Below are positions 798 through 27,620 of a DNA stretch of 64,000 nt, piece by piece. The stretch is taken from contig DATHQM010000054.1 of assembly GCA_035482695.1 (NCBI GenBank), positions 460-64,459 of the forward strand, written 5' to 3'. Under the pieces are notes generated by a model. It was not told the origin of the DNA and searched no databases. It saw only the letters and a list, made by a program, of their open reading frames with translations. A program made the position numbers and the translations under genes. This stretch comes from Steroidobacteraceae bacterium. GTDB taxonomy: Bacteria > Pseudomonadota > Gammaproteobacteria > Steroidobacterales > Steroidobacteraceae. Positions within the stretch are counted from its first letter, which is position 1. Every line of letters begins with the position of its first letter.

Positions 798-1382
798 GTG
801 AGCTCATTGGCGAGGATCCGCGAGAGTGGCATGCCACCGCTCGAGCAGTGGGAGCGCTTCTTCGATCCTGAGGGCATTCTGGAGACGCTCGGCTGCCGCG
901 ACTTGTCGGGCGATGTGCTCGAGCTTGGCTGCGGTTACGGCACGTTCACCATCCCGGCCGCGCGCCGCGCGTGCGGCAGGGTGTATGCACTCGACATCGA
1001 CCCGCTCATGGTTGCGGCTACTGCGGAACGAGCCAGGCGGGCCGGCGTCCACAACGTCGTTGCGGAGCAGCGCGACTTCGTTTTTGGCGGTAGCGCTCGC
1101 GCCGCGTGCTCAACAGCGTATGTCATGCTGTTCAATATCCTGCACCTGGAAGATCCACTCAGCCTTTTGCGGGAGGCGCACCGCGTGCTGCGCCCCGGCG
1201 CAATCCTGGGAGTCCTGCACTGGAAGCCTGACGCCACCACGCCGCGCGGGCCGCCGCTCGAGATCCGGCCGTCGCCGGAGCAATGCCGGCAATGGGGAAA
1301 GGCAGCGGGGTTCCGCTGGATACGAACTCCGGAGCTGCCCGGATCCCCGTGGCACTGGGGCATGATGCTTGAGCGTGCGTAA
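798..1382 (+). CDS. class I SAM-dependent methyltransferase
   Basis: Motif I VLELGCGYGTF and a later acidic loop YALDID. Start is ambiguous (GTG 798, TTG 807 or ATG 831). Confidence 0.8.
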   Translation: MSSLARIRESGMPPLEQWERFFDPEGILETLGCRDLSGDVLELGCGYGTFTIPAARRACGRVYALDIDPLMVAATAERARRAGVHNVVAEQRDFVFGGSARAACSTAYVMLFNILHLEDPLSLLREAHRVLRPGAILGVLHWKPDATTPRGPPLEIRPSPEQCRQWGKAAGFRWIRTPELPGSPWHWGMMLERA

Positions 1383-1430
1383 CTCGATGTGTCGCACCGA
1401 CCCCATGCCGCTGGTCGGACGTTGGCGCCG

Positions 1431-1499
1431 CGCGCAGCGCCACTCCCGCGCAGGCGCCACTCCTTATATAGGCCCTGATCCCTATAGGGCCCTGATCCC
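1431..1499. repeat. two consecutive tandem duplications (16/17-nt units) in a convergent intergenic spacer
   Basis: CGCGCAGCGCCACTCC then CGCGCAGGCGCCACTCC (1431-1463), followed by TATAGGCCCTGATCCC then TATAGGGCCCTGATCCC (1467-1499). The second copy of each pair carries one extra G. Lies between the stop codons at 1382 (+) and 1531 (-). Confidence 0.8.
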
Positions 1500-1530
1500 T
1501 GGCGATACTCGTCAATCGGCGCGCGCGATC

Positions 1531-2079
1531 TCAGCGTCCGCCGGAATCACCGCGACGCCCCGCTTCGAACAGGAACCAGGTGCGCCGCTCCGTCTCGTCG
1601 ATCCACACCTCGATGAGACTCGCGGTCGCGATGTCGCGGTACTCCTCGCACACGTTGTGCGCCTCGCGCAGGCGCCCCGCGAGTGCCTTGTTGTCCTCAC
1701 GCAGCTCGGCGAGCATGTCGGACGGCTCCACGTACTCCGCGTCGTTGTCGGACACTCTCTTCATGGCGGCGATCTGACCGATCGAGCGCAGCGTTCCCCC
1801 GCCTACCTTGCGGACGCGCTCGGCGATGGCGTCGGTCATCGCGAAGATCTGGTCGGCATGTTCGTCGAACAAGAGATGGTAGTCGCGGAAGTGCGGGCCG
1901 CTCAGGTGCCAGTGGAAGTTCTTGGTCTTGACGTACAGCGCAAAGACGTCCGCGAGAATGGCATTCATCGCGCCGGAAATTTCCTTGGTCGCGGTCGCCG
2001 ACAGGTCCGTGGGCGTAATCAGCGGCCGGCGGGACGCGTCGTGTGTGTCGTGGCTCTTGGTCGAATCCGGGCGGCTCAT
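1531..2079 (-). CDS. dps: Dps family DNA-protection/ferritin-like protein
   Basis: LADVFALYVKTKNFHWHLSGPHFRDYHLLFDEHADQIF is the classical Dps ferroxidase region. ATG at 2079 is preceded by AAAGGA; the track's extension to 2124 is unlikely. Confidence 0.92.
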   Translation of the reverse strand: MSRPDSTKSHDTHDASRRPLITPTDLSATATKEISGAMNAILADVFALYVKTKNFHWHLSGPHFRDYHLLFDEHADQIFAMTDAIAERVRKVGGGTLRSIGQIAAMKRVSDNDAEYVEPSDMLAELREDNKALAGRLREAHNVCEEYRDIATASLIEVWIDETERRTWFLFEAGRRGDSGGR

Positions 2080-2239
2080 GGCAAATTGTCCTTTTGGTGG
2101 GGCGGTGCCTTGGCCCCTGATCATACCGCCGCACGAAACGGTGATGTCACCCCCTTAAGGCTGCAAACCGCACGCCTCGCGTCAGGGCCGCGGGACGGCA
2201 AGCACCGACCCCCCGCTCCTGCTGCGGCTCGGCCACGCC

Positions 2240-2440
2240 TCAGTTGTCGAACGAGCGCGCGCGCCGCCGGGCGCGCCACCAGTGAACGATGCGCCGTTCG
2301 GCCGGAGGCGTGTGCCCATGCCCTGCGCGCTCGTCGCCCGACTCCGGATAGCCGGCGTCCTTCGAGCGCCAGGTGGCTGCCACGACATAGAGCGTAAACA
2401 GAGCGCCAACAACGAAAAGGCCGATTCCGGGCTCGCTCAC
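2240..2440 (-). CDS. small hypothetical membrane protein (66 aa)
   Basis: GTG start preceded by GGAGAG. One hydrophobic helix (GIGLFVVGALFTLYVVAATW) and a GC3-rich frame. Same strand as, and directly downstream of, the caspase-like gene. Confidence 0.45.
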   Translation of the reverse strand: MSEPGIGLFVVGALFTLYVVAATWRSKDAGYPESGDERAGHGHTPPAERRIVHWWRARRRARSFDN

Positions 2441-2542: not shown

Positions 2543-4393
2543 CTACTGGAGCCGCGCCATCCACACGTCGGCGTCCGGCCAGACCGGCAATGTGCGTGCG
2601 CAACGGAAGCCGCTGTCCGCATCGGCGCGATCGGGCAGCTCGTAGCGGCGCGTGGCGGCTCGCTTGTTGGCGGGGTTGGGCTCGAGCCACGAGCCGCCCT
2701 TGAGGACCCGGGTACTGCCGACTCCACGGGTGTCGACCCATTGCCAGACGTTCCCGGAGAGCCCGCGGTAGCGGTCACCGATGCCGCCGACGGGTCCGTC
2801 GGTCACGTGCGGCGCAATGTTCATCGAACGCGTCGTGGGACCGAAGTCATCACCCCACGGGAAAATGTTGTCCTGCGGTCCGCGCGCGGCGTACTCCCAC
2901 TCATCTTCACTCGGCAGGCGCGAGCTCTTCGAGCGACAGTAGGCCTCGGCATCCTGGAAGCTGACGCCGACGACGGCTGAATCATCGTCGAGCGGCCGCT
3001 GTTTCAGCGCGTTGCGCCAGCTGCCGCCGGCCACGCGCTGCTCGTGACGGTCGCTGCCGGGCGCCATGGCGTAGGCGAAACCCACCTTCTCGGCGTGCGT
3101 GAGGTACTGCGCGCCGTCGGCAAACTGCCGGAAAGCGCGCACGCTCACCGGCGTGGCGTCGAGCTCGAACGGCGCGAGCGTCACCTGGCGCAGTCTCTCA
3201 TCGGCATAGTCCCGCGGCTGACAGTCGGCCGCGTACTGCTTGCACAGCGCGAGTGCCGCGCCAATCTGCTCCGGCGTGCTGCCGAGTGCGACGCGCCGCG
3301 GGCCGCTCGCGATCAGGCGACGGATCGTATCGGGCGGATAGTCGTGTGCGCTGTCCAGCTGCGCCGTGTCGATGCCGAGCGAGCGCAGCAGCGCCACGGC
3401 GTGGGCGCCGGCAACCACAGCAGCCTGCGGGGCGGGCGCGACCGTGGGCGCTCGGACCGCCGCGGACGTGTGCGAGCTGAACAGGTCGGATACCCAGGCG
3501 AACCAACCGGAGTTGCCGCTGCCCTCAGTGCCGGCAGTACCGCTACCGGCAGAGCCGCTGCCGGCAGCGCCCGTGCCCGTTGCGCCGGCATCCGATCGCG
3601 ACGGCGCCGGCACAGGCGTCGGCACGGAGGTGGCGCGCGCCGCCGCCGCCGGACCGTTGAAGTAGTAATCCTCTCCGGTGAGGGACGAGGCTTCCCACGG
3701 CACCTGCTTGCCCGCGGTCGCGCCCATGACGTCCGCGCGGACGTGCTTGAACACCTGCTCGAGCGGCTGGTGTACTTCCAGCATGGCGCGCGTCAGGGCA
3801 GTGGTGTAGGGACTGTTGCGGCCGCTACCGTCTTCGGCAACTGCACCCGGAGCGGTGGAATACGCAATCAGGATTCCCGCCGGCGCATCCATGCTGGCCA
3901 GCCCGCGGTCGGCAGAGCGCATGCTGCGGTTGAAGGGATTGTTGCGGCAGGCATCGAGGATGACGATGTTGAGACGGTTGCGGGCATAGCGCATCTGCTC
4001 GATCACCCAGTCGGCGCTGACGGCCTCTATCTCCACGTCCCCTTCGCGCTCGATGTTGGCTTTGGTCGGGATCAGGTAGTTGCGGCCGTTGAGCTGCACG
4101 CCGTGACCGGCGTAGTAGAAGAGCCCGACCGCCTGCGGGCCGCCCTTGTCGAGACGCTCGCCGAACTCCTGGATGGCGCGCTTCATGGTGTTCTGGTCGG
4201 CGTCGCGGCGCTCGATCACCTCGAAGCCCAGCTGGCTCAAGGCCTGGGCGACCAGCCGGGCATCGTTGGCGGGATTGAGCAGCGGGCCGCTGGCATAGGC
4301 GCTGTTGCCGACGACCAGGGCAATGCGCGTCTCGGCCGCCTGCACACCGGCGGGCAGCAGCAGCGCCACCGCAAGCAGGGCGAGCCGGCACAT
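2543..4393 (-). CDS. secreted caspase-like (peptidase C14) protein fused to a C-terminal FGE/SUMF1-type domain
   Basis: Signal peptide MCRLALLAVALLLPAGVQA. Caspase His/Cys dyad motifs YYAGHGVQ and IVILDACRNNPF. Low-complexity A/G/S/T/P linker. FGE-type motifs RLPSEDEWEYAARG, GNVWQWVDT, LKGGSW and SGFRCAR. ATG 4393 with AGGAAG upstream. Confidence 0.85.
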   Translation of the reverse strand: MCRLALLAVALLLPAGVQAAETRIALVVGNSAYASGPLLNPANDARLVAQALSQLGFEVIERRDADQNTMKRAIQEFGERLDKGGPQAVGLFYYAGHGVQLNGRNYLIPTKANIEREGDVEIEAVSADWVIEQMRYARNRLNIVILDACRNNPFNRSMRSADRGLASMDAPAGILIAYSTAPGAVAEDGSGRNSPYTTALTRAMLEVHQPLEQVFKHVRADVMGATAGKQVPWEASSLTGEDYYFNGPAAAARATSVPTPVPAPSRSDAGATGTGAAGSGSAGSGTAGTEGSGNSGWFAWVSDLFSSHTSAAVRAPTVAPAPQAAVVAGAHAVALLRSLGIDTAQLDSAHDYPPDTIRRLIASGPRRVALGSTPEQIGAALALCKQYAADCQPRDYADERLRQVTLAPFELDATPVSVRAFRQFADGAQYLTHAEKVGFAYAMAPGSDRHEQRVAGGSWRNALKQRPLDDDSAVVGVSFQDAEAYCRSKSSRLPSEDEWEYAARGPQDNIFPWGDDFGPTTRSMNIAPHVTDGPVGGIGDRYRGLSGNVWQWVDTRGVGSTRVLKGGSWLEPNPANKRAATRRYELPDRADADSGFRCARTLPVWPDADVWMARLQ

Positions 4394-4537
4394 CGAGATA
4401 GGCTTCCTGTCGTTGTTCTTGTGCGCGTGGGCCTGCACGCTTCAATGTCCCCCGCTGAAAACCTTGAGCGGCGGCTGCGCCGCCCATGATGCTATTATCC
4501 GCGCCCGTAGCCGATTGGGAAGTTTGCGGAGAAAAAC

Positions 4538-6831: not shown

Positions 6832-8628
6832 TCAGCCAACCGTCGCGGAGCCGCCGTACGGCTGCACGCTCACGGCGACCGAGTCCGCGATGTGCTCCTT
6901 GGTAATGACCCCCACAACGTCCGACGCACGTGGCACGCCGCGCCCGCGCACCACCACGATCATCGAGGCGTGCTTGCGCCAGAAGCGCTGGATGACGTCG
7001 AACATGATGTCTTCCTGGTGTGCGATGGTGAACGACTCGCTGGCCACGCTTCCCAGCCTGACGCCTGTGTAGGCGCCTTCCAGGCCGTGCCGCAGGCTGG
7101 TATTCACGCGCAACGTGCCGGCGATGCGCTCGCCGTCCGTGACCACGATGTGGCGCAGAGCACTGTCCAGCTCCGGCATGCGCAGAAACTCATCGAACCC
7201 CATGGTTCGCGGCAGTAGCACGAACTCCTTCTCCATCACCTCGCCGGCGCTGCGGATCAGGAACATGTTGGCGTGCATGGCCTTGGGAATGAAATGCTTC
7301 CTGCCGGCCAGCTTGATCGTGTAGATGTTCTCATCGCTCAGCATGCGGCGGACGCCGATGCTGACCGCGACCGCCACGATCATCGGCATCACGATGTCGT
7401 AGTCGCGCGTCATCTCGAAGATCATGACGATAGCCGTCATCGCGGCTCCCGTGCCTCCGCCAACCATCGCCGCCATGCCCACCATCGCGAACGCAGGTAT
7501 GGTGAAGTCCGGCAGTTGCAGGAACGCATGCGCGCAGGCGCCGAAGGCGCCGCCCGCCCCCGCACCCATGAATAGCGACGGGGAGAAGATGCCACCCGAG
7601 GAGCCCGACCCGAGGCTGATCGAAGTGGCCGCCAGCTTGCTCACGAACAGCAGCGCCATGAAGGGCGCGGCGACCATGCCGCCTAGCAGGATGTCCTGGA
7701 TGGTCGAGTAGCCGACACCGTCGATGTGATAGTGACCGGAGCCGAGCAGGAACGCATACATCATCGTGCCGACGATGGCCATGCCGAGCGCGTGTCGCAG
7801 GTAGGGATTAGCGATGCGCTCGAAGAGCTTCTCGCTGGCATACAAGCCGCGAATGAACGCCGTAGCGGCCAGGCCGCACAACGCGCCGAGCACGGCACAC
7901 AGCAACACCGCCGGCAGCGAAACGGGCGCCCCGTTCAGCACGAGTTTCTCCGGCACATCGAACGCAGGCCGCACGCCGAGAAACAAGCGACCGATGAAGG
8001 TGGCGGTTCCGGTAGCCAGCGCCACGGGCAGGAAGGTGCGCACGCTGACCTCGGGCATCATCAGCTCGATCGCGAACATCACGCCGCCGAGCGGCGTATT
8101 GAACGTTGCGGCGATGCCCGCTCCCGCGCCGGCGGCGACCAGCGTGATGCGTTGCCAGGTGTCCATTCTGATCAGCTGTCCGGCCGTCGAACCGAGCGTC
8201 GCGCCGATCTGGATGATCGGACCTTCGCGCCCCACGGCCGCGCCGCTGCCGATCGAGAGCGCCGAAGCGAGCGACTTCACGGCCGCCACGACCGGACGGA
8301 TCCTTCCTTCGCGGTAGAAGATCGCGTCCATCACTTCCGGGACGCCGTGACCGCGCGCCTCCGGTGCAAACTTCGTGACCACGAACACCACCGCGAGTCC
8401 GCCGATGACCGGCACCAGAATGACGCCCGCTCCCCAGCGACTAGCCGACTCGTAAAAGTTCGCGTCGTAGACGAGCGAGAGACGGCCGTAGAAGAAGGCG
8501 TTGTGGATCACGCCGATCAACGCCCGGAAGACGATCGCGCCCGCGCCGGTGATGATGCCGACGCCGACGGCGAGTAGCGACAGTCCGAGAAGGCCTGGGG
8601 GCGGTCGCGCAGCGACGTCCGGTTGCAT
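6832..8628 (-). CDS. ClC family chloride channel/transporter with C-terminal CBS pair
   Basis: Selectivity-filter motifs GREGPIIQIG and GSSGGIFSPSLFMG, about 10 TM helices, and two CBS-like repeats at the C-terminus. ATG 8628 (MQPDVAARPP...) is preferred to the upstream extension. Confidence 0.9.
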   Translation of the reverse strand: MQPDVAARPPPGLLGLSLLAVGVGIITGAGAIVFRALIGVIHNAFFYGRLSLVYDANFYESASRWGAGVILVPVIGGLAVVFVVTKFAPEARGHGVPEVMDAIFYREGRIRPVVAAVKSLASALSIGSGAAVGREGPIIQIGATLGSTAGQLIRMDTWQRITLVAAGAGAGIAATFNTPLGGVMFAIELMMPEVSVRTFLPVALATGTATFIGRLFLGVRPAFDVPEKLVLNGAPVSLPAVLLCAVLGALCGLAATAFIRGLYASEKLFERIANPYLRHALGMAIVGTMMYAFLLGSGHYHIDGVGYSTIQDILLGGMVAAPFMALLFVSKLAATSISLGSGSSGGIFSPSLFMGAGAGGAFGACAHAFLQLPDFTIPAFAMVGMAAMVGGGTGAAMTAIVMIFEMTRDYDIVMPMIVAVAVSIGVRRMLSDENIYTIKLAGRKHFIPKAMHANMFLIRSAGEVMEKEFVLLPRTMGFDEFLRMPELDSALRHIVVTDGERIAGTLRVNTSLRHGLEGAYTGVRLGSVASESFTIAHQEDIMFDVIQRFWRKHASMIVVVRGRGVPRASDVVGVITKEHIADSVAVSVQPYGGSATVG

Positions 8629-9039
8629 GGCGAAGTGAAACAGAGTGCGGCGATCGGGAGCGAGAATACAGGTTCGGGTCGGGCCGCTGCCAGTGCCGCA
8701 GCGCGATGGCCTTATAATCCGCACCGGGCATCAGGTTCGCGCGCGCCGCGCCAGCGCGCCGCCTGCATCTGCCCGGCCTCACAGCCTGCCGCAAGCCGAA
8801 CTCGCGGATTTTGCCAGGCAGGCGCACGAGTAGATCTGCCCGTACTCTCACGCGACACGCGGCAACGTGCCCCTGGAGCTGGTGATCGAGGGTGCGTAGC
8901 GCGCGTTTGCGCCGCGGCGATCGGAATCCGATTCGACTTAACACATCAGAAGCGGCGCTGCATCACGGTTAGTACGTACTTCGACCAATGCGCATGCGGC
9001 GACTCACGATAGGCTGCTCGCGCGGCTGACGTGATACTG

Positions 9040-9140
9040 GCGCCGTTTTCAATCGCAAACCCATCGAAAGATGGGGACGCAAAGCCTCCGGTCTAAGGGT
9101 TGACGCCTATGACAGCGGGGTTGCCGGGGCAGCTAAAGCC
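9040..9140 (+). promoter_or_regulatory. c-di-GMP-I (GEMM-I) riboswitch aptamer
   Basis: GCAAACC-CAUC-GAAA-GAUG-GGGACGCAAAGCCUCCGGUCUAAG...CCUAUGACAGCGGGGUUGCC. This matches, block for block, the V. cholerae Vc2 aptamer as I recall it (GCAAACCAUUCGAAAGAGUGGGACGCAAAGCCUCCGGCCUAA...GCGGGGUUACC). It includes the GNRA tetraloop hairpin (9061-9076) and a tetraloop-receptor-like UCUAAG/UAUGA pair (9092-9097/9108-9112). Located 110 nt upstream of ATG 9250. Confidence 0.88.
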
Positions 9141-9249
9141 GCCTCGTTAGACACGCGCCCGACGTAGCGGGCCATGTCGGGCAACCCCCTGTGCATCTGC
9201 TCCCCGCAACCGGATTGACGCAGTCGTTAATCGGTTTGCTGGAGCACAA

Positions 9250-9729
9250 ATGCAAAAGTCTAGGTCTGGATTCCCGGTGTCGGTGTGGACGGCGACCGCG
9301 CCGGCGGTCGCGCTGCTGCTGCTCGCAGGCTGCGGTGACGGATCGGCCGACAGCGCCTCGAGCTCGGCCGCACCGCAGTCATCGAACAGCACCGTTGCGA
9401 GCCAGCCGACGGGCAGCCGTGGCGATAACCCCCCGCCAACCCGATCGGCGCTACCCGGTCCGAGCACCTCCAGTGCGTCGCTCGACTGGGCTGCACCGAC
9501 CACGAACACCAACGGCTCCGCGCTGACCAACCTGGGTGGTTACAAGATCTACTACGGCACGAGCAGCAGTCGGCTCTCCAGCACAATAACAATCAGCAAC
9601 CCCGGCCTGCTGACCTACGTGGTCGAGGGGTTACCGATAGGCACCACCTACTACTTCACGATCGTCGCGGTCACCACCGGCGGGGTCGAAAGCGCCGACT
9701 CGGCGGTTGTGTCCATGCAGATCTCCTGA
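9250..9729 (+). CDS. lipoprotein with fibronectin type III-like domain
   Basis: Lipobox LLLLAGC, a Ser/Pro-rich linker, then an FN3-like pattern (LDWAAPTTNTNGSALTNLGGYKIYYGTSS...TYYFTIVAVTTGGVESADS). GGAG RBS at 9241-9244. Confidence 0.8.
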   Translation: MQKSRSGFPVSVWTATAPAVALLLLAGCGDGSADSASSSAAPQSSNSTVASQPTGSRGDNPPPTRSALPGPSTSSASLDWAAPTTNTNGSALTNLGGYKIYYGTSSSRLSSTITISNPGLLTYVVEGLPIGTTYYFTIVAVTTGGVESADSAVVSMQIS

Positions 9730-9748: not shown

Positions 9749-10321
9749 ATGAGCACGTCTTCACTCCTGGCGATCGCGGCGTCAGCCAGCCCTTCTCCCG
9801 GCGACTCCGCGATAACCGCCGCGCCGGTAAACGTCGCCATTGCGGACAGCGCGCGGGTGCCGGTAAGCGTCGCCATTCCGGACGCCGCGCCGTATGCCAT
9901 ACAGCTGCGCATCTCCCCGGCACCGATCGATCCGCGCAGCGTGCCGCGTCTCGATATCTTCGACCTGTATACGCTCTACTGCGATGTGCGGCTGGAGAAC
10001 GGACTGATGCGCCACTCACTGCGCCTCGGATTCTTCAAGGACCCCGCCACGGCGAAGGTCATCGCGCGTTACCTGGCGTCCTATTTCGAGGCGACGCAGA
10101 TCGTGCACCTCAATACCACCGAACAGACTCGCTCCCTGCGCGTCAAGCTCGCGGCGCTGAAGGATATCGGTGACTCCGGACGTCACACGGTCATCGAACT
10201 CTCCGAGCCCGAGCCTGCCGCGCCACAGACGCGCCGCGCGCCGCCGCGCCCGCTCGGCAGGCCGCGCGCGCCTGATATCGACACCCGTTCGCTCTGGTCG
10301 CGCCTGGTGCAGCCGCGCTAG
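9749..10321 (+). CDS. hypothetical protein, possible SPOR-like fold
   Basis: AAAGGA RBS then ATG 9749. The segment YAIQLRISPAPID...HSLRLGFFKDPATAKVIARYL is reminiscent of SPOR domains. Arg/Pro-rich tail. Second gene of the riboswitch-led operon. Confidence 0.6.
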   Translation: MSTSSLLAIAASASPSPGDSAITAAPVNVAIADSARVPVSVAIPDAAPYAIQLRISPAPIDPRSVPRLDIFDLYTLYCDVRLENGLMRHSLRLGFFKDPATAKVIARYLASYFEATQIVHLNTTEQTRSLRVKLAALKDIGDSGRHTVIELSEPEPAAPQTRRAPPRPLGRPRAPDIDTRSLWSRLVQPR

Positions 10322-10333
10322 CGCAACGGCTAT

Positions 10334-11278
10334 TCAAAGTCCGGCCAGCACCCCGATCAGGCGGCCGGCCGCGTAGGTAACGGCGGCGGCGACCGCGCCG
10401 ATCGCGGTTTGTCGCAATCCGGAAAATACGGCAGGCCGGGCGTTGAACAGCGAGCTGCTCAGTCCCACGACAAACAGCGCTGTCACCGACAGCGCGATAC
10501 TGCCGGCGACTCTCCAGGGAAGCGGCAAGAGACAAAACGGCAGCAACGGCACGAGCGCACCGCACGCGAACAGCACGAAGGAGAACGTGGCGGCACTCGC
10601 TGCGCTGCCGACCGATGCGACGCTCGGGTGCTGCTCGCGCTGACGCGCATCCAGGGCCGGGTCGAGCTGGCTGAGGGCAAGCTCGCGGGCGTTGGTAACC
10701 GATAGCCATTCACCAAGTGCCATCGAGCAGGCGCCGCCGAGCAGTCCCACCGTGCCGGTGAGCAGCGTGGCCGCGGGAGAGACGCCACCGCCGGCGACGC
10801 CCATCAGCAGGCAGAAGTTCGACGCCAGCCCGTCGTTGACGCCGAGCAACGCGGCGCGCAGGTTGGTCCCGACGGCGACGTCACTCCCGCCCCTCAGGAT
10901 GTCCGCGTGCGCGTGCTCATCGAGCGCCAGCCCCGCCGCCTGCGCGTCCTCCTGGGCCGCGTAGTCGTCCCGATCCTTCATCTCCCGGGTCACGATGCTC
11001 GGTACCACGAACGCCGAGCCGAAGCGCCGTGCGAGGAAGATCAGGAACGCGGTACGCAGCGAGCGGCGCAAGACCGGCAGAACGTGCCCGGCGCCGCGCA
11101 ATTGTTGCTCCCAGAAGGCCGCGTGGCGCCGCTCACTGCTGGCGAGCTCGAGGTAGACCCCGCGTTGCTGCGGATCGCGCTCGAAGCGTGCGAGTGCGGC
11201 ATACAGCTCCGCGCTGTCATGCTCGGCTCGCCAGTTGCGCAGCAGCCGTTCCTTCTCCTGCACGTCGGTGTTCATCAC
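10334..11278 (-). CDS. ferritin-like (erythrin) domain fused to VIT1/CCC1 iron/manganese transporter (MbfA-like), paralog 1
   Basis: N-terminal EHDSAELYAALA...LASSERRHAAFWEQQL (rubrerythrin/erythrin-type helices). C-terminal VIT1 motifs LRAALLGVNDGLASNFCLLMGVAGG and LGEWLSVTNAREL. Confidence 0.85.
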   Translation of the reverse strand: MMNTDVQEKERLLRNWRAEHDSAELYAALARFERDPQQRGVYLELASSERRHAAFWEQQLRGAGHVLPVLRRSLRTAFLIFLARRFGSAFVVPSIVTREMKDRDDYAAQEDAQAAGLALDEHAHADILRGGSDVAVGTNLRAALLGVNDGLASNFCLLMGVAGGGVSPAATLLTGTVGLLGGACSMALGEWLSVTNARELALSQLDPALDARQREQHPSVASVGSAASAATFSFVLFACGALVPLLPFCLLPLPWRVAGSIALSVTALFVVGLSSSLFNARPAVFSGLRQTAIGAVAAAVTYAAGRLIGVLAGL

Positions 11279-11607
11279 GATGCCCGGAATGCAGAATTAG
11301 CGCAGACCGCCGCAGTCTCCTGATAGCGCACTGCGCTTGCCTGGTGATCGTTGATCGCCGCCTGATGATACTGTGCGTCGGCGGCGACATCGAGATACGT
11401 AGCGAGACCTGCAGGCCGCACAGGATCGCGGTGCCGCTGCGCCGCGATAATCCGCTCAAGGCGCAGGTCACCCTCGGAAACTACCTATTACCGGTAGGTC
11501 CGCAGATGGCAGATGGGCGACAACGAGCTGCAGGCGTGCGAGAAGTACCTAGCGACGCCGCGCCCGGCGCGGTAGATGCTCGGGGCGGCTGGCATGACAG
11601 GTACCGT

Positions 11608-12447
11608 ATGAATTCGAACAATGAAACCCACAGCAACGCTGGCGTGCCTCGCAGCGACGCGCCTCGCAGCGATGATTGGAGTCAGTACGCCTCCAAGGGC
11701 CTGCACAGCCGGTTGTTGCACGTATCGCGGCTGGCTACCATGGGGGAGCTGGCCGGCGGCGTATCGCATGAGCTCAACCAGCCGTTGACCGCGATCGCAA
11801 ACTATGCGCACGCATGCGACCGGTTGCTGGCGCGACCTGGTGCCGACCTGGGCGAAGTGCGTGAAGCGCTGCACCAGATCACGCTGCAGACCACGCGCGC
11901 CGCCGACATCATCCGACGGCTGCGAAAACTGGCGGACAGACAAAGCAGCGAGCACCTGCCCGCGAGCGTCAACCTACTCGTGCAGGAGCTGCAGGACCTG
12001 CTGGAGACCGATGCGGGTCTGCATCGAGTGGAGTTGTCGCTGCAGCTGGCTGCGGAACTGCCCGAGGTACTGGTTGACGGCGGACAGATTCAGCAGGTAG
12101 TCCTCAATTTCTTCCGCAACAGCCTCGATGCTCTCGCCGCGCGTGCCCCGAGCGACTCTCCCCGGGTGATCATCCGTACCTCGGCGATCGCCGATAATGA
12201 GGTGGAGCTGGCGGTAAGCGACAATGGACCGGGTCTTGCGCCGGGCCTGAAGAGGCGCCTCTTCGACCCCTTCTTCTCGACCAACGGGCAAGGCAGCGGA
12301 CTGGGTCTTGCGATCAGCAACACCGTGGCACGCGCTCATGGCGGCTCGGTCGGCTACCGGTCCAGCGAGTCAGGTGGTGCCTGCTTTTACATACGGCTCC
12401 CCGTACGCCTCCCCAACCCCGCTGCCGAACCTGCTGTGCCGGCTTGA
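11608..12447 (+). CDS. sensor-less cytoplasmic histidine kinase (HisKA + HATPase only), orphan
   Basis: H-box MGELAGGVSHELNQPLTAIANYA starts about 45 aa from the N-terminus. N/G boxes NFFRNSLDA, DNGPGL and GSGLGLAIS. No TM or sensory domain. ATG 11608; the track's 11029 extension is non-coding-like. Confidence 0.85.
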   Translation: MNSNNETHSNAGVPRSDAPRSDDWSQYASKGLHSRLLHVSRLATMGELAGGVSHELNQPLTAIANYAHACDRLLARPGADLGEVREALHQITLQTTRAADIIRRLRKLADRQSSEHLPASVNLLVQELQDLLETDAGLHRVELSLQLAAELPEVLVDGGQIQQVVLNFFRNSLDALAARAPSDSPRVIIRTSAIADNEVELAVSDNGPGLAPGLKRRLFDPFFSTNGQGSGLGLAISNTVARAHGGSVGYRSSESGGACFYIRLPVRLPNPAAEPAVPA

Positions 12448-12489: not shown

Positions 12490-14070
12490 TCAGGTCGCCA
12501 GCAACTCCTCGAGTATCAACAGCAGCTCTTCCGCGTTGATGGGTTTGCTGGCGATGCGCAGGTGCGGATCGTCCCGCAACTGCTTGATAGCGGTCGAGGT
12601 ATCTCCGGTGATGAGCACCGACCGCAGGTCAGCCGCCACGCTCGCTCGCAACTGCTCGATCACCTGCGTCCCAAGCTCGCCATCGCGCAGATGATAATCC
12701 GTGATCAGCAGGTCGGGAGCCCCCTCCTCGCGGGCACTGCGCAGAGCCTCCCCCAGCGAGGCGACGGCCGACACCCGGTAACCTTCGACGTTCAGCAACA
12801 TGCGCGTCGCATCGCGTACTCCCGGATCGTCCTCCACGAGAATGACGCGCGGTTTAGCGGATCCCGCGGGCCTGACAGCTGCCGGGATCCCCTGCGGCCC
12901 CGGGCCCGTGCCCGCCGTGCTTCCCCGCGGAAGCGCGAATGAGAACGTCGAGCCCTTGCCGACCTGGGAGGTCACTTCCAGACGCAGGTTCAGCAGACTC
13001 ACCAGGCGCTGGACGATGCTGAGTCCAAGGCCGTAACCGTCACGCGAACTGTTGGTCGCAACGCCCACCTGGTAGAACTCGTCATAGATGTAAGCGAGCT
13101 GGCTGGCGGGTATGCCGATGCCGGTGTCGACCACATCGATGCGCAAGCAGGCTTGCTCCGGCCGCGCCCGCAGCAGCACCTCGCCCTTAGGGGTGTATTT
13201 GATGGCATTCGAAATCAGGTTGTTGAGGATCTGCCGCACCAGCGAGGGATCGCTGTGCACGCTCCCCGGCGCGGACTGCACCCGCAGCTGCAGTCCCTTG
13301 TCGGCCGCGACGCTGGCAAACTCCCGGCGCAACTCCTCGAACAGCGCGACTACCGTGAAATCGGCAGACTCGGGCTTGATCGCACCCGACTCGAGCTTAC
13401 TGATATCAAGCAATGCGTTCAGCAGACGCGACATCGCATTGATCGCGGCGGCCTGCTGTGACAGCGCTTCGACCGCATCCTGGCCGTGCGTCATGCGGCG
13501 CAGCGAGCCGTTGAGGAGCGCGAGCGTCTGCAGGGGCTGACGCAGGTCGTGACTGGCCGTGGCCAGGAAGCGGCTCTTGGCCTGGTTGGCCCGATCGGCG
13601 CTGTCGCGCGCGTCATCGGCGATGTGTCTGAGCCGATCTGCTACTTCGCGGGCGCGTTCCGAGGCTTCGCGGATCATCTTCAGCTCCGCTTCCGCACGCT
13701 TGCGCTCGGTGACGTCGCGAATCGCCGCGGCGACCAGGATCCGTTCGCCATCCTGGATCGGACTCAGGCTGATCTCGACTGGAAATTCACTACCGTCGGT
13801 GCGTTGTCCGAACAGGGATAGCCCCTCACCCATCGCGCGGATACGCGGTACCGCCGTGTAGCCCTGCCGATGGGCGACGTGGCGACTGCGAAAGCGCGCG
13901 GGCATCAGCCGTTCGATGCTCAGGCCGACGATTTCGGCGGGCGCATAACCGAACAGTGCCGAGATCTGCCGATTGACATACCTGACGATGCCCTCGTCGT
14001 CGATGATGATCATCGCATCCGGAGCAGCGTCGAGCGCGCTGCTTGCCAGATCGATGGATGCCGATCGCAT
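12490..14070 (-). CDS. PAS-containing hybrid sensor histidine kinase/response regulator
   Basis: PAS (MIIIDDEGIVRYVNRQISALFGY), H-box FLATASHDLRQPL, HATPase (DTGIGIP, GYGLGLSIV), C-terminal receiver (RVILVEDDP...LLITDYHL). Confidence 0.9.
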   Translation of the reverse strand: MRSASIDLASSALDAAPDAMIIIDDEGIVRYVNRQISALFGYAPAEIVGLSIERLMPARFRSRHVAHRQGYTAVPRIRAMGEGLSLFGQRTDGSEFPVEISLSPIQDGERILVAAAIRDVTERKRAEAELKMIREASERAREVADRLRHIADDARDSADRANQAKSRFLATASHDLRQPLQTLALLNGSLRRMTHGQDAVEALSQQAAAINAMSRLLNALLDISKLESGAIKPESADFTVVALFEELRREFASVAADKGLQLRVQSAPGSVHSDPSLVRQILNNLISNAIKYTPKGEVLLRARPEQACLRIDVVDTGIGIPASQLAYIYDEFYQVGVATNSSRDGYGLGLSIVQRLVSLLNLRLEVTSQVGKGSTFSFALPRGSTAGTGPGPQGIPAAVRPAGSAKPRVILVEDDPGVRDATRMLLNVEGYRVSAVASLGEALRSAREEGAPDLLITDYHLRDGELGTQVIEQLRASVAADLRSVLITGDTSTAIKQLRDDPHLRIASKPINAEELLLILEELLAT

Positions 14071-14559
14071 GGCGACATCCTAGCGCCGATCCCACGCCGA
14101 CCGCGACTGGAAGCCTCAGGCCGGGGCTAGAGCACGGCGGGTGTCCCGCGCAACGGTAGCTAAGGCCACCGGGCACGCGCCTGCAACACAGTCGCACCGC
14201 TGTACTGTCCGGAGACGGCGAGAGGAGCGTCGAGTGGTCGCCAGCCGACGACGATCAAGATTCACTGAGGTCACGCTGCTGGACAGCCGCGGCGACGAAT
14301 CGGCTGCCGCGGCCATGACCCCGCCTTCGGGGGGCTCTCTACAGGGGGGCCAAATACCACTGCCTATAGGGACTTACCACAACTGCGCGCGCTGCCCGGT
14401 CCTCGAGGGCACCGATGGCCGATATTGGCTCCCGATTGATATGCCAGGATGCCATTGCATGGCAGGCGTGGACTGTATCCCCCGTGCTGCGTCGAGAGTG
14501 AGGGCCATGTCAACGATCGTATCGCGCGTGCGTCTCGAGTGACCGCTGAGGAACGCCGC

Positions 14560-17103
14560 ATGACCAAGCACCGATTTCCCATCTCCGCGAAGATCGCTGC
14601 CGCCTTCTGCGCCATCGTCCTCATCGTGCTGGCGGTCGGGATCATGGCCCTGGTGCGCCTCGATGCGATCAACGCTGGGGCGACCGCAGCGCGCGACAAC
14701 CACGTACCGAGCGCCCGTACCCTGGGCCAGCTGCGTACCAGCGTCAGAATGTACCGCCTCACCGAGGCGGCGCTGGCGCTCCTGGCTCACGATGAACGCG
14801 AAATGCCGGCGGCGAACGCGCAACTGCAGTCTGCGGCGGCTACGGTCGACAAGGCGCGGGCAGACAGCGAGCCATTCATCACGCGTGGCACGGCCGGCGA
14901 GCGCTACCTGCACGATTTCGACGCGATCTGGGCCGCCTACCAGGCGGCCACCGACGGCCCAAGACGCAGCTTCCTGAACCAGGAAACGGATGCACGCAGC
15001 TACTTCGCCGTGGGATCGCGATTCTATGAGGCGGCCACCAGCGTACTGACCCAGGACATCATCGACAATACGCGTGTCAGCATGACTGCCAGCTCGGCCG
15101 CAATAGAGTTCATCACGCGCACGCGTGAGCTCATGCTGGCGGCGCTGCTCGCAGTCATCGCAGCGAGCGCCATCCTCGGGCTGCTGCTGACGCGCAGCGT
15201 GTCGATCCCGGTCAGGGTCACCACCGCTGCCATGAAACGCCTCGCCTCACGCGACTTCGCCGTGACAATCCCCGGCATCGGCCGCGGCGACGAGCTCGGC
15301 GAGATGGCCGACGCCATCGAGGTATTCAGACAGAGCCTCCTCGATCACGAGCGGCTGCGTGCGCACGACGATGCGCAAAAAGCGGCGCTGCTCGTCAGCG
15401 AGCTGCGGTTCCGTGAAATATTCGACTGCGTCCACGACGGGATCTTCATCAGTGACGCCGCCAGCGGTCGCATCGTGGACGTCAATCCGCGCGGTTGCGA
15501 GCTGTTCGGCTTCGAGCGCGACGAGCTGATCGGCACCACGCCGGAAATGCTGGCCGCCGGAGTGACCCCCTACACGGAAACCGGCGTGATGCGCGGCCTC
15601 GTCCGCATGCGCGGCCAGGGTCCGGCCACCTGCGAGTGGCACTGCAAGAGGAAGGACGGGCGGCTGTTCTGGGTGGAGCTGTCGCTGCGGCACGCTAACT
15701 TCGGTGGACAGGACGTGGTGCTCGCCAGCGTGCGCGACATCAGCGATCGCCGCGAGGCGGAAGAGCAGATCAGGCACATGGCGCTCTATGACGGCCTGAC
15801 CGGATTGCCAAACCGCGGCGTATTCGTCGAAGCCGTCGGGCGGGCAATAAGCCGCTCAAGACGTGACGGCCGGAACTTCGCCGTGCTGTTCCTCGATCTG
15901 GATCACTTCAAGGACGTCAACGACACGCTCGGTCATCCTGTGGGGGATGCGCTGCTGCGCGAGGTCGCCGGGCGGCTGCGCAGCGCGGTTCGCGAAACTG
16001 ACGTCGTGGCACGCTTCGGCGGCGACGAATTCGCGGTACTGGCTGACGACATCCATGGTGCGACCGATGCGGCCCAGCTCGGCGACAAGCTGCTCAAGGC
16101 ACTCGAAGCGCCATTTGCCATTCAGGGAACCCAGGTGCGCACCGGCCTGAGTATCGGCATTGCGCCATACACCGAAAGCAGCGCCGACGTCGAGATGCTG
16201 ATGTCGCACGCCGACGTAGCGCTGTACCGAGCCAAGGCCGAAGGCCGGGGCACTTATCGCTTCTTCAACACCGGGATGGACTCCGAGACGCGTGCGCGCG
16301 TCGCCTTGATCGGCGAGCTGCGCGAAGCCATTGCGTCGGATCAGCTGTTTCTCATGTACCAGCCGCAGGTCGACATCGCGAGCGGTCGCATCACCGGCGT
16401 CGAGGCGCTGGTGCGCTGGCGACACCCGCGGCGCGGCGTGCTGGCTCCGGAAACGTTCGTTCCCGAGGCGGAGAGCAGCGGCCTGATCGTCGCCCTCGGC
16501 AGGCGGGTGCTGCGCGATGCGTGCCGCCAGGCGAAACGCTGGCACGACGCCGGCTTGCTGCCGGAGCGCATGGCGGTGAATCTTTCGGCCGGGCAATTAC
16601 GGGTGCCGTCCGAGCTGGAACAGCTCGTCATGGCGACCCTGAGCGAGATCGGGTTGCCCGCGCAGCGGCTCGAGCTGGAGCTGACCGAAAGCATGCTGAT
16701 GGGAACCGGTGCCCACCAGGCCGTGCTCGCGCGCCTGCGTGCGCGGGGCGTGAAAGTCGCTATCGATGAGTTCGGCACGGGCTATTCCTGTCTCGATTAC
16801 CTGCGCTGTTTCCCCGTGGATCGGGTAAAAATTGCGCAGACTTTCGTGGCCGAGCTCGATCAGCCCGGAAACGCAGCGGTAGTGAAGGCCACCATCGGAC
16901 TGGCGCGCGAGCTGCATATGGCGGTCATCGCGGAAGGCCTGGAGACGCGCCGCCAGATCGAGTTGCTGTCGGAGTGGGGCTGCACGGAAGGCCAGGGTTT
17001 CTACTACGCACAACCCGGCTCGCCCGAGGAGCTCGAACCGCTGCTGCGCGCCGGCTTCCTCCGTCGCACATCAGGTGAAGCGGCGAATAAGGTCGCGGCC
17101 TGA
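14560..17103 (+). CDS. membrane sensor HAMP-PAS-GGDEF-EAL protein (c-di-GMP synthesis/turnover)
   Basis: Two TM segments flank a helical periplasmic region, then HAMP and PAS. GGDEF is intact (RFGGDEF) with an RxxD I-site (RETD) five residues upstream. EAL motifs EALVRW, DEFGTGYS, EGLET and QGFYY. GAGGAA RBS before ATG 14560. Confidence 0.9.
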   Translation: MTKHRFPISAKIAAAFCAIVLIVLAVGIMALVRLDAINAGATAARDNHVPSARTLGQLRTSVRMYRLTEAALALLAHDEREMPAANAQLQSAAATVDKARADSEPFITRGTAGERYLHDFDAIWAAYQAATDGPRRSFLNQETDARSYFAVGSRFYEAATSVLTQDIIDNTRVSMTASSAAIEFITRTRELMLAALLAVIAASAILGLLLTRSVSIPVRVTTAAMKRLASRDFAVTIPGIGRGDELGEMADAIEVFRQSLLDHERLRAHDDAQKAALLVSELRFREIFDCVHDGIFISDAASGRIVDVNPRGCELFGFERDELIGTTPEMLAAGVTPYTETGVMRGLVRMRGQGPATCEWHCKRKDGRLFWVELSLRHANFGGQDVVLASVRDISDRREAEEQIRHMALYDGLTGLPNRGVFVEAVGRAISRSRRDGRNFAVLFLDLDHFKDVNDTLGHPVGDALLREVAGRLRSAVRETDVVARFGGDEFAVLADDIHGATDAAQLGDKLLKALEAPFAIQGTQVRTGLSIGIAPYTESSADVEMLMSHADVALYRAKAEGRGTYRFFNTGMDSETRARVALIGELREAIASDQLFLMYQPQVDIASGRITGVEALVRWRHPRRGVLAPETFVPEAESSGLIVALGRRVLRDACRQAKRWHDAGLLPERMAVNLSAGQLRVPSELEQLVMATLSEIGLPAQRLELELTESMLMGTGAHQAVLARLRARGVKVAIDEFGTGYSCLDYLRCFPVDRVKIAQTFVAELDQPGNAAVVKATIGLARELHMAVIAEGLETRRQIELLSEWGCTEGQGFYYAQPGSPEELEPLLRAGFLRRTSGEAANKVAA

Positions 17104-17121: not shown

Positions 17122-17943
17122 TCAAAACCACAGCCGCAGTCCCGCGACCCACTGCAGCTCGGACGTGCCCAGGCCCTGTGTACGGGCATCGGTAGCGGTC
17201 CCGCCGCACAGCCGCCGCCACGCGACGCCCACGTAGGGCGCGAACTCGCGGCGAATCTCGTAGCGCAACCGCACGCCCACATCCAGATCCGCGAGCCCCG
17301 AGCCGAGCTGGCGCGCGGGGTCGGCCTTCCCGTACAGGTTGGCCTCGGCCTCGGGCTGCACCACGAGCCGCGGTGTGAGCCGCAGGTCGTATTCGACCTT
17401 CACGCGTGCGGCAGTGCGACCCGCATCGCCGGCGTACGCCGTGGCCTCGACGTCGAACCAGTAGGGTGCGAGCCCCTGCACGCCGAGCGCGGCCCAGCCG
17501 CGCGGCGGCCCGTCGCCGAAATCCTCGCGCGCCCCCGCCTGCAGGCTCCACCAGCGGCTGACGATGCGATCCCAGAGCAACTCCACGCGGGCGTCCGCGG
17601 TGATTCCCTGCAGCCGCTCGCCCTCGGTGCGCAGCCACAGCTTGTCGTAGTCGCCGCCGTACCACGCCTCCCCTTCCCACACCGCGGCATCCCCACTACC
17701 GTCGTGACGCCACTCGAGCTGATCCAGCAGCACACTGCCGGTGCTCGCGGCGTCGTTCATCTGCATCACCTGCACCATGTCGGCGTTGCTCATCGGCGGC
17801 ATCGATTGCTGCGGCGGCTCGGGGGCGACATGTGGCGCGATCGCCGCTTGCTGCTGCGCCCGCGCCACGGATGCGATCGCGGCCAGGGCCGCAGCGAGCA
17901 CGGCGGCGCGCATGCGCTCAACGTGCGCCGGCCACCACCTCAT
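17122..17943 (-). CDS. copB: copper resistance protein B (outer membrane)
   Basis: Typical CopB/PcoB sequence (MQMNDAAS...LLDQLEWRHDG...WYGGDYDKLWLRTEGER...) ending in an aromatic residue (LRLWF). Start overlaps the copA stop (ATGA). Confidence 0.88.
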   Translation of the reverse strand: MRWWPAHVERMRAAVLAAALAAIASVARAQQQAAIAPHVAPEPPQQSMPPMSNADMVQVMQMNDAASTGSVLLDQLEWRHDGSGDAAVWEGEAWYGGDYDKLWLRTEGERLQGITADARVELLWDRIVSRWWSLQAGAREDFGDGPPRGWAALGVQGLAPYWFDVEATAYAGDAGRTAARVKVEYDLRLTPRLVVQPEAEANLYGKADPARQLGSGLADLDVGVRLRYEIRREFAPYVGVAWRRLCGGTATDARTQGLGTSELQWVAGLRLWF

Positions 17944-19652
17944 CCCGCGCGGTCCGTGCCCGGGCGCTCCACCACGACCTCACGGAACATGCCGGCCTCC
18001 ATGTGGTAGAGCAGATGACAATGGTAAGCCCAGCGCCCGAGCGCATCGGCAGTGACCAGGTAGCTGAGGCGCTGCGCGGGTTGCACCGTGATCGTGTGCT
18101 TGCGCACCAGGAAATCGCCATTCTCCGCCAACAGCTCGCCCCACATGCCGTGCAGGTGGATCGGGTGATTCATCATGGTGTCATTCACCAGCACCAGCCG
18201 CAGTCGCTCACCGTAATTGAAACGCAGCGGCTCGCTCGCCGAGAACTTCTGTCCGTTGAATGACCAGATGAAGCGCTGCATGTGCCCGGTGAGGTGCAGC
18301 TCGATGTCGCGAGCCGCCGCGCGCGAATCGATCGGACCGTCGAGAGTATGAAGATCGGCATAGGTGAGCACCCGGCGACCGTTGTTGCGCAGGCCGACTC
18401 CAGGATCGTCGAGCCGCGTTTGCGGCTGCAGCACCTGCATGTCGACCGTGGGCCCATAGTCCGCCGCAGCGTGCTCCCCGTCCGCGCCATCGGCCATGGA
18501 CATCGAGCTCATGTCGCGCATGCTGCCGGACATGCCCATGTCACTCATCGACAGCAGCGGGCGTGCATCGAGCCGCGGCACATCCGCCCGCAGGCCCGGC
18601 TGGGGCGCCAGCGTGCCACAGGCGTAGCCGGACCGATCGATCGCCTGCGCGAATATCGTGTATGGGCGGTCGGCCGGCGCGACGATGACATCGAGCACCT
18701 CCGCGGTGCCGATGCGGAATTCGTCGACGGAAACCGGCTCGACATCCTGGCCGTCCGCGGCCACCACCCGCAGCTTCAATCCCGGTATGCGCACGTCGAA
18801 GAACGACATCGAGGAGCCATTGATGAAACGCAGCCGTACCTCCTCGCCGCGCTGGAACAGTCCCGTCCAGTTGCCCTGAGGCGTGACGCCGTTCATCAGG
18901 TAGGTGTAGGTGTAGCCGGAGACGTCGGCGAGATCGGTCGGATCCATGCGCATGCGGGCCCACATGCCGCGCTCCGCGAGCGTCGCCGGCCAGCCGTCGC
19001 GGTGCGCATCGGCGAGCGTATCGCCGAGCGTGCGCTGTCCGTGGTTGAAATACTGAGGGTGCACCTTGAGCAGCCGGTACACGTGTTCCGGGTCCGCATC
19101 CGTCCAGTCCGACAGCAGCACGACGTAATCGCGCGCGCTGGGATGGCGCTCAGCGCCACGCGGGCTGACGATGATCGCGCCGTACAGCCCGGTCTGCTCC
19201 TGGAAGCGCGAGTGACTGTGATACCAGTACGTTCCGGACTGGTTAACGCGAAAGCGGTAGCGGTACACGCCCCCCGGCGGGATGCCGTGGAAGCTCAAGC
19301 CCGGCACCCCGTCCATGTCCGCCGGTACGATCATGCCGTGCCAGTGGATGGAGGTCGGCACCGGCAGATGATTCGCGACGCGCACTGCGACGACATCCCC
19401 TTCGCGCCAGCGCAGTACCGGTCCCGGAAGCCGCCCGTTGACGACCGTGGCGCTGCGGCGCCTGCCGGTGAGATCGACCGTCACAGTGCCGATCGCCAGC
19501 TCGAAGTCCGTCCCGCTGAGCGTCGCGGCGTCGCTGGCCGTTGCCGTCGTGACGCCAGCCACGGGAAGCAGCAGTGCGCTGCCGGCGAGCCCCTGAACGA
19601 ACTTGCGCCGCGAGACGAGGGAGGTCACGGCAGGCGCCGTCGTGCGCGTCAT
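17940..19652 (-). CDS. copA: copper resistance multicopper oxidase CopA/PcoA
   Basis: Tat signal SRRKFVQG. Copper-binding motifs HWHGM, WYHSH and HCHLLYHMEAGM. Met-rich loop MSDMGMSGSMRDMSSMSM. Confidence 0.92.
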   Translation of the reverse strand: MTRTTAPAVTSLVSRRKFVQGLAGSALLLPVAGVTTATASDAATLSGTDFELAIGTVTVDLTGRRRSATVVNGRLPGPVLRWREGDVVAVRVANHLPVPTSIHWHGMIVPADMDGVPGLSFHGIPPGGVYRYRFRVNQSGTYWYHSHSRFQEQTGLYGAIIVSPRGAERHPSARDYVVLLSDWTDADPEHVYRLLKVHPQYFNHGQRTLGDTLADAHRDGWPATLAERGMWARMRMDPTDLADVSGYTYTYLMNGVTPQGNWTGLFQRGEEVRLRFINGSSMSFFDVRIPGLKLRVVAADGQDVEPVSVDEFRIGTAEVLDVIVAPADRPYTIFAQAIDRSGYACGTLAPQPGLRADVPRLDARPLLSMSDMGMSGSMRDMSSMSMADGADGEHAAADYGPTVDMQVLQPQTRLDDPGVGLRNNGRRVLTYADLHTLDGPIDSRAAARDIELHLTGHMQRFIWSFNGQKFSASEPLRFNYGERLRLVLVNDTMMNHPIHLHGMWGELLAENGDFLVRKHTITVQPAQRLSYLVTADALGRWAYHCHLLYHMEAGMFREVVVERPGTDRAG

Positions 19653-27518: not shown

Positions 27519-27620
27519 CGGCCGATATTTCATCACATCCGCGCGCTTAGGTACCGGCAACGGTCAAGACGCCGGCGTGCCGCTGGTGGAACCGACCACC
27601 GGATCGGTTAATCTGCGGCC

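Follow-up and report, generated by a model that had tools for sequence, protein, structure and literature searches.

The DNA analyzed here is a stretch of 64,000 nucleotides (nt) from an uncultured soil bacterium of the Steroidobacteraceae (contig DATHQM010000054.1), hereafter called the window. Positions 9044–9254 of its forward strand are the 5′ leader of a two-gene operon, which codes for a small lipoprotein with a fibronectin type III (fn3) domain (gene 1, 9250–9729) and for a protein with a SPOR-like predicted fold (gene 2, 9749–10321). The leader begins with an aptamer of the GEMM-I (c-di-GMP-I) class, continues with a strand able to pair with the 3′ strand of that aptamer, and ends in a hairpin that buries the Shine–Dalgarno (SD) sequence together with the start codon. 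We give a slightly better than even chance to the reading in which these elements form an aptamer/anti-aptamer switch, responsive to cyclic diguanylate (c-di-GMP), that sets the initiation of translation, the sign of the response being tentatively OFF.

The Aptamer and Its Ligand

A cmscan search with Rfam 15 finds a match to RF01051 at 9044–9128 of the plus strand, with 78.0 bits for a gathering score of 35 and an E-value of 1.3e-13. The match spans model positions 1–87 of 87 and is therefore not truncated, and RF01051 is the sole Rfam family above its gathering score in the whole 64-kb window. An original prediction, made by reading the sequence without database searches, had placed a near-canonical GEMM-I riboswitch here and had proposed a covariance-model search as its check. 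The match lies 43 bits above the gathering score, so far above it that the observation is confirmed, far beyond chance. The 71-nt string that the prediction quoted is found at 9055–9125, and all the blocks that it listed are present: GCAAAC, the GAAA-capped hairpin of 6 bp, GGGACGCAAAGCC, CUCCGG, the receptor halves UCUAAG/UAUGA, and GCGGGGUUGCC. Membership of the class thus stands, but the aptamer is not fully canonical, as model position 11, which corresponds to G20 of the Vc2 aptamer of Vibrio cholerae, is C9054. In conclusion, this is a real, conserved member of the GEMM-I class, ordinary apart from a C at the guanine-reading base.

The first hairpin of the aptamer (9055–9080) carries its GAAA tetraloop at 9066–9069, on a stem formed by 9060–9065 and 9070–9075, and is closed by the pairs G9055–C9080 and C9056–G9079, as given by the Rfam alignment and by folding. 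Three of its stem pairs show compensatory changes. The receptor hairpin (9083–9122) consists of the 5′ strand AGCC-CCGGUC, the receptor UCUAAG/UAUGA, and the 3′ strand GAC-CGGGGUU, and is 99.5% paired (helix 3). The Rfam alignment also identifies the equivalents of two ligand-contacting bases of Vc2, A47 at A9081 (model position 38, a conserved A) and C92 at C9124 (model position 83, an invariant C), and both are invariant across all related aptamers. A47 intercalates between the ligand bases, and C92 is the Watson–Crick partner of Gβ (PMC6140456, PMC5888326). Over 22 distinct related aptamers, 97.9% of the cells of the Rfam structure are paired, against 36–49% in slid-partner controls.

The loci examined for conservation were those encoding relatives of the gene 2 protein and of the fn3 protein. 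The aptamer lies upstream of the fn3 gene in L001–L004, L081–L090, L161, L162, and L164–L168; the leader of L001 (DATBYD010000086) is virtually identical to that of the window. A second arrangement is found at 18 Steroidobacter-type loci, including the cultured S. gossypii (L066), where the aptamer lies upstream of a protein of about 700 amino acids (aa) with two copies of the LRLGFF domain. All the orthologous aptamers tested exceed the Rfam gathering score (64–88 bits). More distant relatives of gene 2 have no GEMM-I aptamer by the covariance model (L005–L018) or by pattern search (L019–L057 and L091–L160), so that the association is limited to two clades. The protein of L066 (2510–4732) is rich in Ala and Pro, contains the gene 2 domain twice, and stands behind a G20-type GEMM-I aptamer.

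The mismatched base in the Rfam alignment, C9054, occupies the position of the nucleotide that reads Gα. The mapping to Vc2 position 20 is our own derivation: the distance between positions 47 and 20 is 27, as between model positions 38 and 11; G21–C46 equals model pair 12–37; and the A that first follows GACGC, 27 nt downstream, is A47 (Vc2 numbering as in PMC6140456 and PMC9049102). Position 20 is C in ten distinct window-type leaders (including L003, L004, L086, L089, L090, L161, L162, L164, and L165), and A in L002 (and also in L084); L168 and every aptamer of the Steroidobacter type have G. This position is a selectivity switch, since A20G turns the GEMM-Ib riboswitch of Gmet_0970 from cyclic GMP–AMP (cGAMP) to c-di-GMP (PMC6456294), and the G20A mutant of Vc2 binds both ligands, with 53 and 120 nM (PMC6140456). 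An A at position 20 characterizes the cGAMP-sensing GEMM-Ib aptamers (PMC6456294, PMC6140456); the window has C instead.

Because of this C, c-di-GMP is here a presumed (sole) ligand. The ligand is probably c-di-GMP, with cGAMP or a dual specificity as further candidates. An aptamer with C (or A) at position 20 might indeed sense 3′3′-cGAMP or be bispecific, a possibility that we hold to be rather unlikely and that would be compatible with any mechanism. The distribution of bases speaks for it, with C in ten distinct leaders, A in L002, and never G within the C-type clade. So does the selectivity role of the position, and one can argue, as we do here, that A and C share the pattern of their Watson–Crick edges (acceptor N1/N3, donor N6/N4), which would fit their interchangeability. 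Rfam, moreover, places the binding-site variants c-di-GMP-I-GGC and c-di-GMP-I-UAU in the same clan. On the other side, a protonated C could read Gα as protonated A20 does (by analogy, PMC6140456), and G20 is present in sister leaders of the same gene family. A canonical GGDEF–EAL protein (RETDVVARFGGDEF) lies 5 kb away, and no cGAMP synthase was seen within the window; the sole GGDEF protein found in these 64 kb has the canonical Asp of its motif. We know of no C20 aptamer that has been characterized so far, and mutants of Vc2 at G20 were reportedly found by Smith et al. in 2010 to keep nanomolar-or-better binding of c-di-GMP.

Another, apparent departure from Vc2 concerns the closing helix P1, which lies outside the Rfam RF01051 model. 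Because position 19 is U, the first P1 pair (G19–C93) cannot form. The 5′ tail was found to share no conserved complementarity with the 3′ flank, and an all-against-all scan of the alignment columns of the orthologues gives no covarying helix. A P1 formed over a longer range, by the 5′ flank and the sequence after the next hairpin, was rejected because the pairings are nonhomologous, differ from one orthologue to the other, and likewise include no covarying helix. That next hairpin, H1 (9125–9146; C9125–G9146 through C9133–G9138, with a UAAA loop), is found whether the leader is folded freely or with the aptamer enforced. Its nine pairs, three of them with compensatory changes, are 93% paired in 13 leaders. 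H1 abuts the aptamer, beginning at C9125, the expected first nucleotide of the 3′ strand of P1, and may stack in place of P1.

It is conceivable, if unlikely, that the window-type leaders represent a natural GEMM-I subclass, having C or A as base 20 and H1 in lieu of P1, whose selectivity would be altered (toward 3′3′-cGAMP, toward both cGAMP and c-di-GMP, or toward another cyclic dinucleotide). If so, a second cyclic-dinucleotide signal would govern an envelope operon in Steroidobacteraceae, beside the G20-type c-di-GMP switches found on paralogous SPOR-like genes.

The Anti-Aptamer Strand and the Shine–Dalgarno Hairpin

The sequence GGCAACCCC at 9180–9188 is a perfect 9-nt complement of GGGGUUGCC at 9117–9125, the 3′ strand of the aptamer. 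By folding and pair counts, this aptamer strand (strand A) can pair either within the aptamer or with the downstream, anti-aptamer strand (strand B), closing in the latter case a three-way junction with H1 and with a second hairpin, H2 (9150–9178). Strand B extends by CUGU to cover 9180–9192, and without a formed aptamer it pairs with 9117–9125 and also with 9112–9115. H2 has a base of GACA:UGUC, a length that depends on the orthologue, and a base helix that is 83% paired. In the unconstrained minimum free energy (MFE) structures of all eight orthologues folded, the anti-aptamer pairing replaces the receptor helix. Eight pairs of the anti-aptamer helix are 96% paired in 13 leaders, with changes only between GC and GU, and the GCAAC of strand B is invariant. 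The free ensemble lies 1.0–10.3 kcal/mol below the aptamer-enforced ensemble, and a gap of 1–10 kcal/mol is within the range that a tightly bound ligand can pay. The conserved strand at 9180–9188, which had escaped the original prediction, is thus our candidate for the switching element.

Four related leaders (L086, L089, L090, and L164) differ in several of these parts. Their aptamers lack the canonical 11-nt receptor (UCUUUG.../...GAACGAUAG), their H2 carries an insertion of 20–25 nt, and downstream they have GGCUAGGCCC, nearly complementary to the distal hairpin of the aptamer, GGGCUCUAGCC, which makes a second anti-aptamer element.

The 3′ part of the leader folds into a hairpin (9192–9254; local fold of −29.2 kcal/mol) that sequesters both the SD and the AUG. 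UGCAU (9192–9196) pairs with AUGCA (9250–9254), UGCUCC (9198–9203) with GGAGCA (9241–9246), and the upper stem occupies 9206–9239. The original prediction had already proposed that TGCTCC at 9198–9203 acts as an anti-SD facing the SD GGAGCA at 9241–9246; this pairing is recovered by folding, with the intervening hairpin at 9206–9239. Counterparts of this hairpin, with −22 to −33 kcal/mol, sequester the SD and the AUG in 13/13 orthologues. The lower stems are 87–88% paired, one of the pairs occurring in four pair types, and the anti-SD and SD arms show sequence differences between orthologues at their paired positions: UGCUCC/GGAGCA, CGCUCCC/GGGAGCG, and CUCCUAAG/CUUAGGAA. The Steroidobacter-type leaders use another platform, with CUUCCCC as the anti-SD, GGGGAAG as the SD, and a GTG start. 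Translational control, suggested from the start, is the most likely mechanism, and the sequestration of the SD that it requires is predicted in every orthologue; the equilibrium fold leaves the SD closed in both states.

In the mechanism that we propose, the ligand, most likely c-di-GMP, would decide whether the aptamer or the anti-aptamer helix forms, and the grip of the C-rich anti-SD arm on the SD would follow from this choice, with translation initiation as the output. Once the aptamer is locked by its ligand, its G-rich strands would no longer be available as decoys for the anti-SD arm, and the SD/AUG hairpin would close more firmly (OFF). When no ligand is bound, the anti-SD arm could instead be trapped by strands of the unfolded aptamer, at least during the stage of transcription that precedes synthesis of the SD. 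The modeling of the leaders points tentatively, and we hold this loosely, to translational repression by the ligand, possibly of a kinetic nature. In the RNAalifold consensus, the aptamer strands are paired with the anti-SD arm, and the folding of transcripts cut off upstream of the SD pairs this arm with aptamer nucleotides in 9/10 orthologues. The cost of opening the ribosome-binding site (RBS) is higher with the aptamer enforced in 11/13 window-type leaders and in 14/14 Steroidobacter-type leaders. Ligand-induced repression is therefore favored, although the effect is small.

Several observations weigh against this account. Equilibrium folding gives an unpaired probability of about 0 for the SD in both states and in all orthologues, and the cost of opening the RBS is 10–22 kcal/mol with or without an enforced aptamer. 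The leaders are related, so that the counts of 11/13 and 14/14 are not independent events. The complementarity that makes the aptamer a decoy is weakly above what composition would give, as between 2/100 and 43/100 shuffled anti-SD arms do equally well or better in energy. Invariance of the aptamer strand deprives the anti-aptamer helix of two-sided covariation. With C at position 20, the binding of c-di-GMP is itself assumed. Finally, the extended RNAalifold structure, in which the receptor hairpin is zipped onto 9180–9214 and the SD is free, is in the window 18 kcal/mol worse than the MFE. For this reason, it was rejected as an equilibrium switch, and in our models it would be a possible co-transcriptional intermediate. 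A conserved anti-aptamer strand next to a constitutively stable SD/AUG hairpin is not explained by equilibrium models, and this makes the leader a candidate for kinetic (co-transcriptional) control.

Other platforms were discarded. An intrinsic terminator is absent from 8400–9600 of the plus strand, where the leader hairpins are not followed by U-runs. A 13-bp anti-anti-SD complementarity (9119–9133 with 9199–9211) exists in the window type and is absent from the L003 and L086 types. Pairing of strand B with the SD arm in the bound state would rely on a complementarity that is just partial and not conserved. The 5′ tail UCAAUC (9049–9054, including position 20) is complementary to GAUUGA (9213–9218) in the 5′ arm of the SD hairpin, which may be due to chance. 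The motifs concerned, AAUC in the tail and GGAUU in the hairpin, co-occur, and L002 and L168 have lost both. As a mechanism, this pairing was set aside for want of sufficient evidence and because it would leave the SD sequestered.

The sign of the switch could also be the opposite one, with the ligand turning expression ON, which we consider unlikely. Binding would then free the pyrimidine-rich 13 nt of 9180–9192 as a standby site for the 30S ribosomal subunit, immediately 5′ of the SD/AUG hairpin, and the subunit would capture the hairpin as it breathes; without ligand, the strand would be locked in the anti-aptamer helix stacked on the hairpin. The geometry of the folds agrees with this, as the free MFE structure leaves no linker (the last nucleotide of the anti-aptamer helix is 9192, and the first of the SD/AUG hairpin is 9192/9193), 9183–9192 is largely unpaired in the aptamer-enforced fold, and the default ligand-free fold is fully closed. 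Adhesins and envelope proteins are, moreover, common targets of induction by c-di-GMP, and the products here are an fn3 lipoprotein and a SPOR-like protein. However, the computed cost of opening the RBS points to the opposite sign in 25/27 leaders, initiation assisted by a standby site would face a very stable hairpin, of −22 to −33 kcal/mol, and manual inspection of the alignment reveals no conserved complementarity of the released strand with the SD arm.

Because the SD hairpin is closed in both modeled states, another step may be the regulated one. We see it as quite improbable that the switch acts mainly on the fate of the transcript, through Rho-dependent termination or RNase attack at 9183–9212, the SD hairpin being then a constitutive brake on translation. 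These 30 nt contain about 15 C and 5 G by our own count, and the leader has no intrinsic terminator. Yet the burial of the SD along with the AUG is conserved, which is a classic signature of translational control, and rut sites are not reliably recognizable from sequence. That the leader is a decaying, nonfunctional remnant of a riboswitch, as its nonconsensus base at a ligand contact and the lack of a detectable P1 helix might suggest, is hardly credible in view of the full-length, high-scoring match to RF01051 and of the conservation, with compensatory changes, of the aptamer, H1, the anti-aptamer strand, and the SD hairpin, although the downstream proteins are just 44–70% identical.

The Operon and Its Neighborhood

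The aptamer sits in a divergent intergenic region of 525 nt, between a ClC channel gene (6832–8724, minus strand), the divergent neighbor of the lipoprotein gene, and the ATG at 9250. The two-gene unit is bounded at its 3′ side by a convergent VIT1/rubrerythrin gene (10334–11278, minus strand). Within it, 19 nt separate the stop of the first open reading frame (ORF), of 159 aa, from the ATG of gene 2 at 9749. The gene pair and its leader are syntenic in L161, L162, L163, and L165, and both proteins have their nearest relatives in soil metagenomes and in metagenome-assembled genomes of Steroidobacteraceae.

Upstream of the leader, a putative promoter-like element (9010–9038, plus strand) consists of the −35 box TAGGCT (9010–9015), a 17-nt spacer, and the −10 box GATACT (9033–9038). 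It fell below the threshold of a consensus promoter scan, which did not report it. The orthologues keep the same layout (TTGGCC or TTCGCC, 17 nt, GATGAT or GATAAT) at an equal distance from the aptamer. Judging from these boxes, transcription would start near 9045, which would leave a 5′ tail of only about 9 nt before the aptamer core.

Gene 1 (9250–9729) codes for a lipoprotein of 159 aa with the lipobox LLAGC and one fn3 domain (PF00041, 34 bits for a cut-off of 25). It has 294 homologues, the nearest in Steroidobacteraceae and soil metagenomes. Gene 2 (9749–10321) codes for a protein of 190 aa that belongs to an unnamed family, with 43 homologues at E ≤ 1e-3 and two invariant motifs, LRLGFF and a C-terminal SLWSRL. 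Its sequence has no match among Pfam, NCBIfam, or PDB profiles; for 26 members of the family, there is no Pfam match at E ≤ 1, including SPOR (PF05036). In the AlphaFold2 model, residues 41–140 have block means of 80–94 for the predicted local distance difference test (pLDDT). The best PDB folds given by Foldseek are the SPOR domains of RlpA (6i09) and CwlC (1x60), with template modeling (TM) scores of 0.61–0.67 over the target, probabilities of 0.90–0.98, and nonsignificant E-values of 0.13–0.19. Hence, SPOR-like is for this protein a lead suggested by the predicted fold, not an assignment.

As a plain GEMM-I riboswitch, the element adds little, because thousands are known and Rfam detects this copy automatically. 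Its interest is that it ties cyclic-dinucleotide signaling to the uncharacterized SPOR-like (LRLGFF) family and to a small fn3 lipoprotein, in poorly studied Gammaproteobacteria from soil. Such a link offers a functional handle on both proteins, which may have envelope, septal, or adhesion roles under the control of a second messenger. The clade-wide C or A at position 20, together with the missing P1, provides a natural test case of how the GEMM-I pocket tolerates, or exploits, a change at that position.

Several neighboring genes code for signaling proteins. A histidine kinase (11029–12447, plus strand) and a PAS–HisKA–HATPase–receiver hybrid kinase (12490–14070, minus strand) adjoin the operon, and VIT1, the histidine kinase, and the PAS hybrid kinase are also syntenic in L161. 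The GGDEF–EAL protein mentioned above is an 884-aa 4HB_MCP–HAMP–PAS–GGDEF–EAL protein (14449–17103, plus strand), 5 kb downstream of the riboswitch, and may locally supply or consume c-di-GMP. Farther away are a 631-aa protein (2543–4438, minus strand) with both a caspase (Peptidase_C14) domain and an FGE-sulfatase domain, a three-domain multicopper oxidase (17940–19652, minus strand), and the alpha subunit of a Rieske ring-hydroxylating oxygenase (20515–21687, minus strand). Three ORFs of 514, 739, and 342 aa (21899–23443, plus strand; 27564–29783, minus strand; and 1369–2397, plus strand) have no Pfam match at E ≤ 1e-5, and, given the high G+C content of the window (about 67%), they may not all be genes.

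Comparison with Known Systems

The gene 2 protein has a predicted β-(α)-β-β-α-β core, for which the SPOR domains of RlpA (6i09) and CwlC (1x60) are the best structural matches. It differs from them in having no sequence-level match and in the motifs of its own family, LRLGFF and SLWSRL.

Among the variants of the aptamer, c-di-GMP-I-GGC and c-di-GMP-I-UAU (Rfam clan CL00126) are comparable to that of the window, since they are GEMM-I scaffolds with nonconsensus ligand contacts, and their ligands are not established. The best match of the window within this clan is, however, plain c-di-GMP-I. If variants are named after positions 20/47/92, the aptamer of the window would be ‘CAC’, which we take not to be among the described variants.

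The GEMM-Ib riboswitches of Geobacter (e.g., Gs1761/pgcA and Gmet_0970) have the same fold and a base other than G at the selectivity position 20 (PMC6456294, PMC6140456), and among the orthologues, L002 carries their typical A20. In contrast, the window has C at this position and belongs to a gammaproteobacterial host, and its platform sequesters the SD, whereas a terminator serves as the platform of at least the pgcA switch (PMC6456294).

The aptamer of the Vc2 GEMM-I riboswitch of V. cholerae is likewise built of two hairpins, with a GAAA tetraloop and a receptor of the 11-nt type (UCUAAG/UAUGA). The core strings are identical (GACGCAAAGCCUCCGG, GCGGGGUU), the equivalents of A47 and C92 are kept, and both aptamers lie on the sense strand of a 5′ untranslated region. 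The differences are the C at position 20 and the U at position 19 (both G in Vc2), the lack of a detectable P1, with the covarying H1 beginning where the 3′ strand of P1 would start, and the regulated genes, which are others in the window. By its sequence, the aptamer of the window is closest to Vc2.

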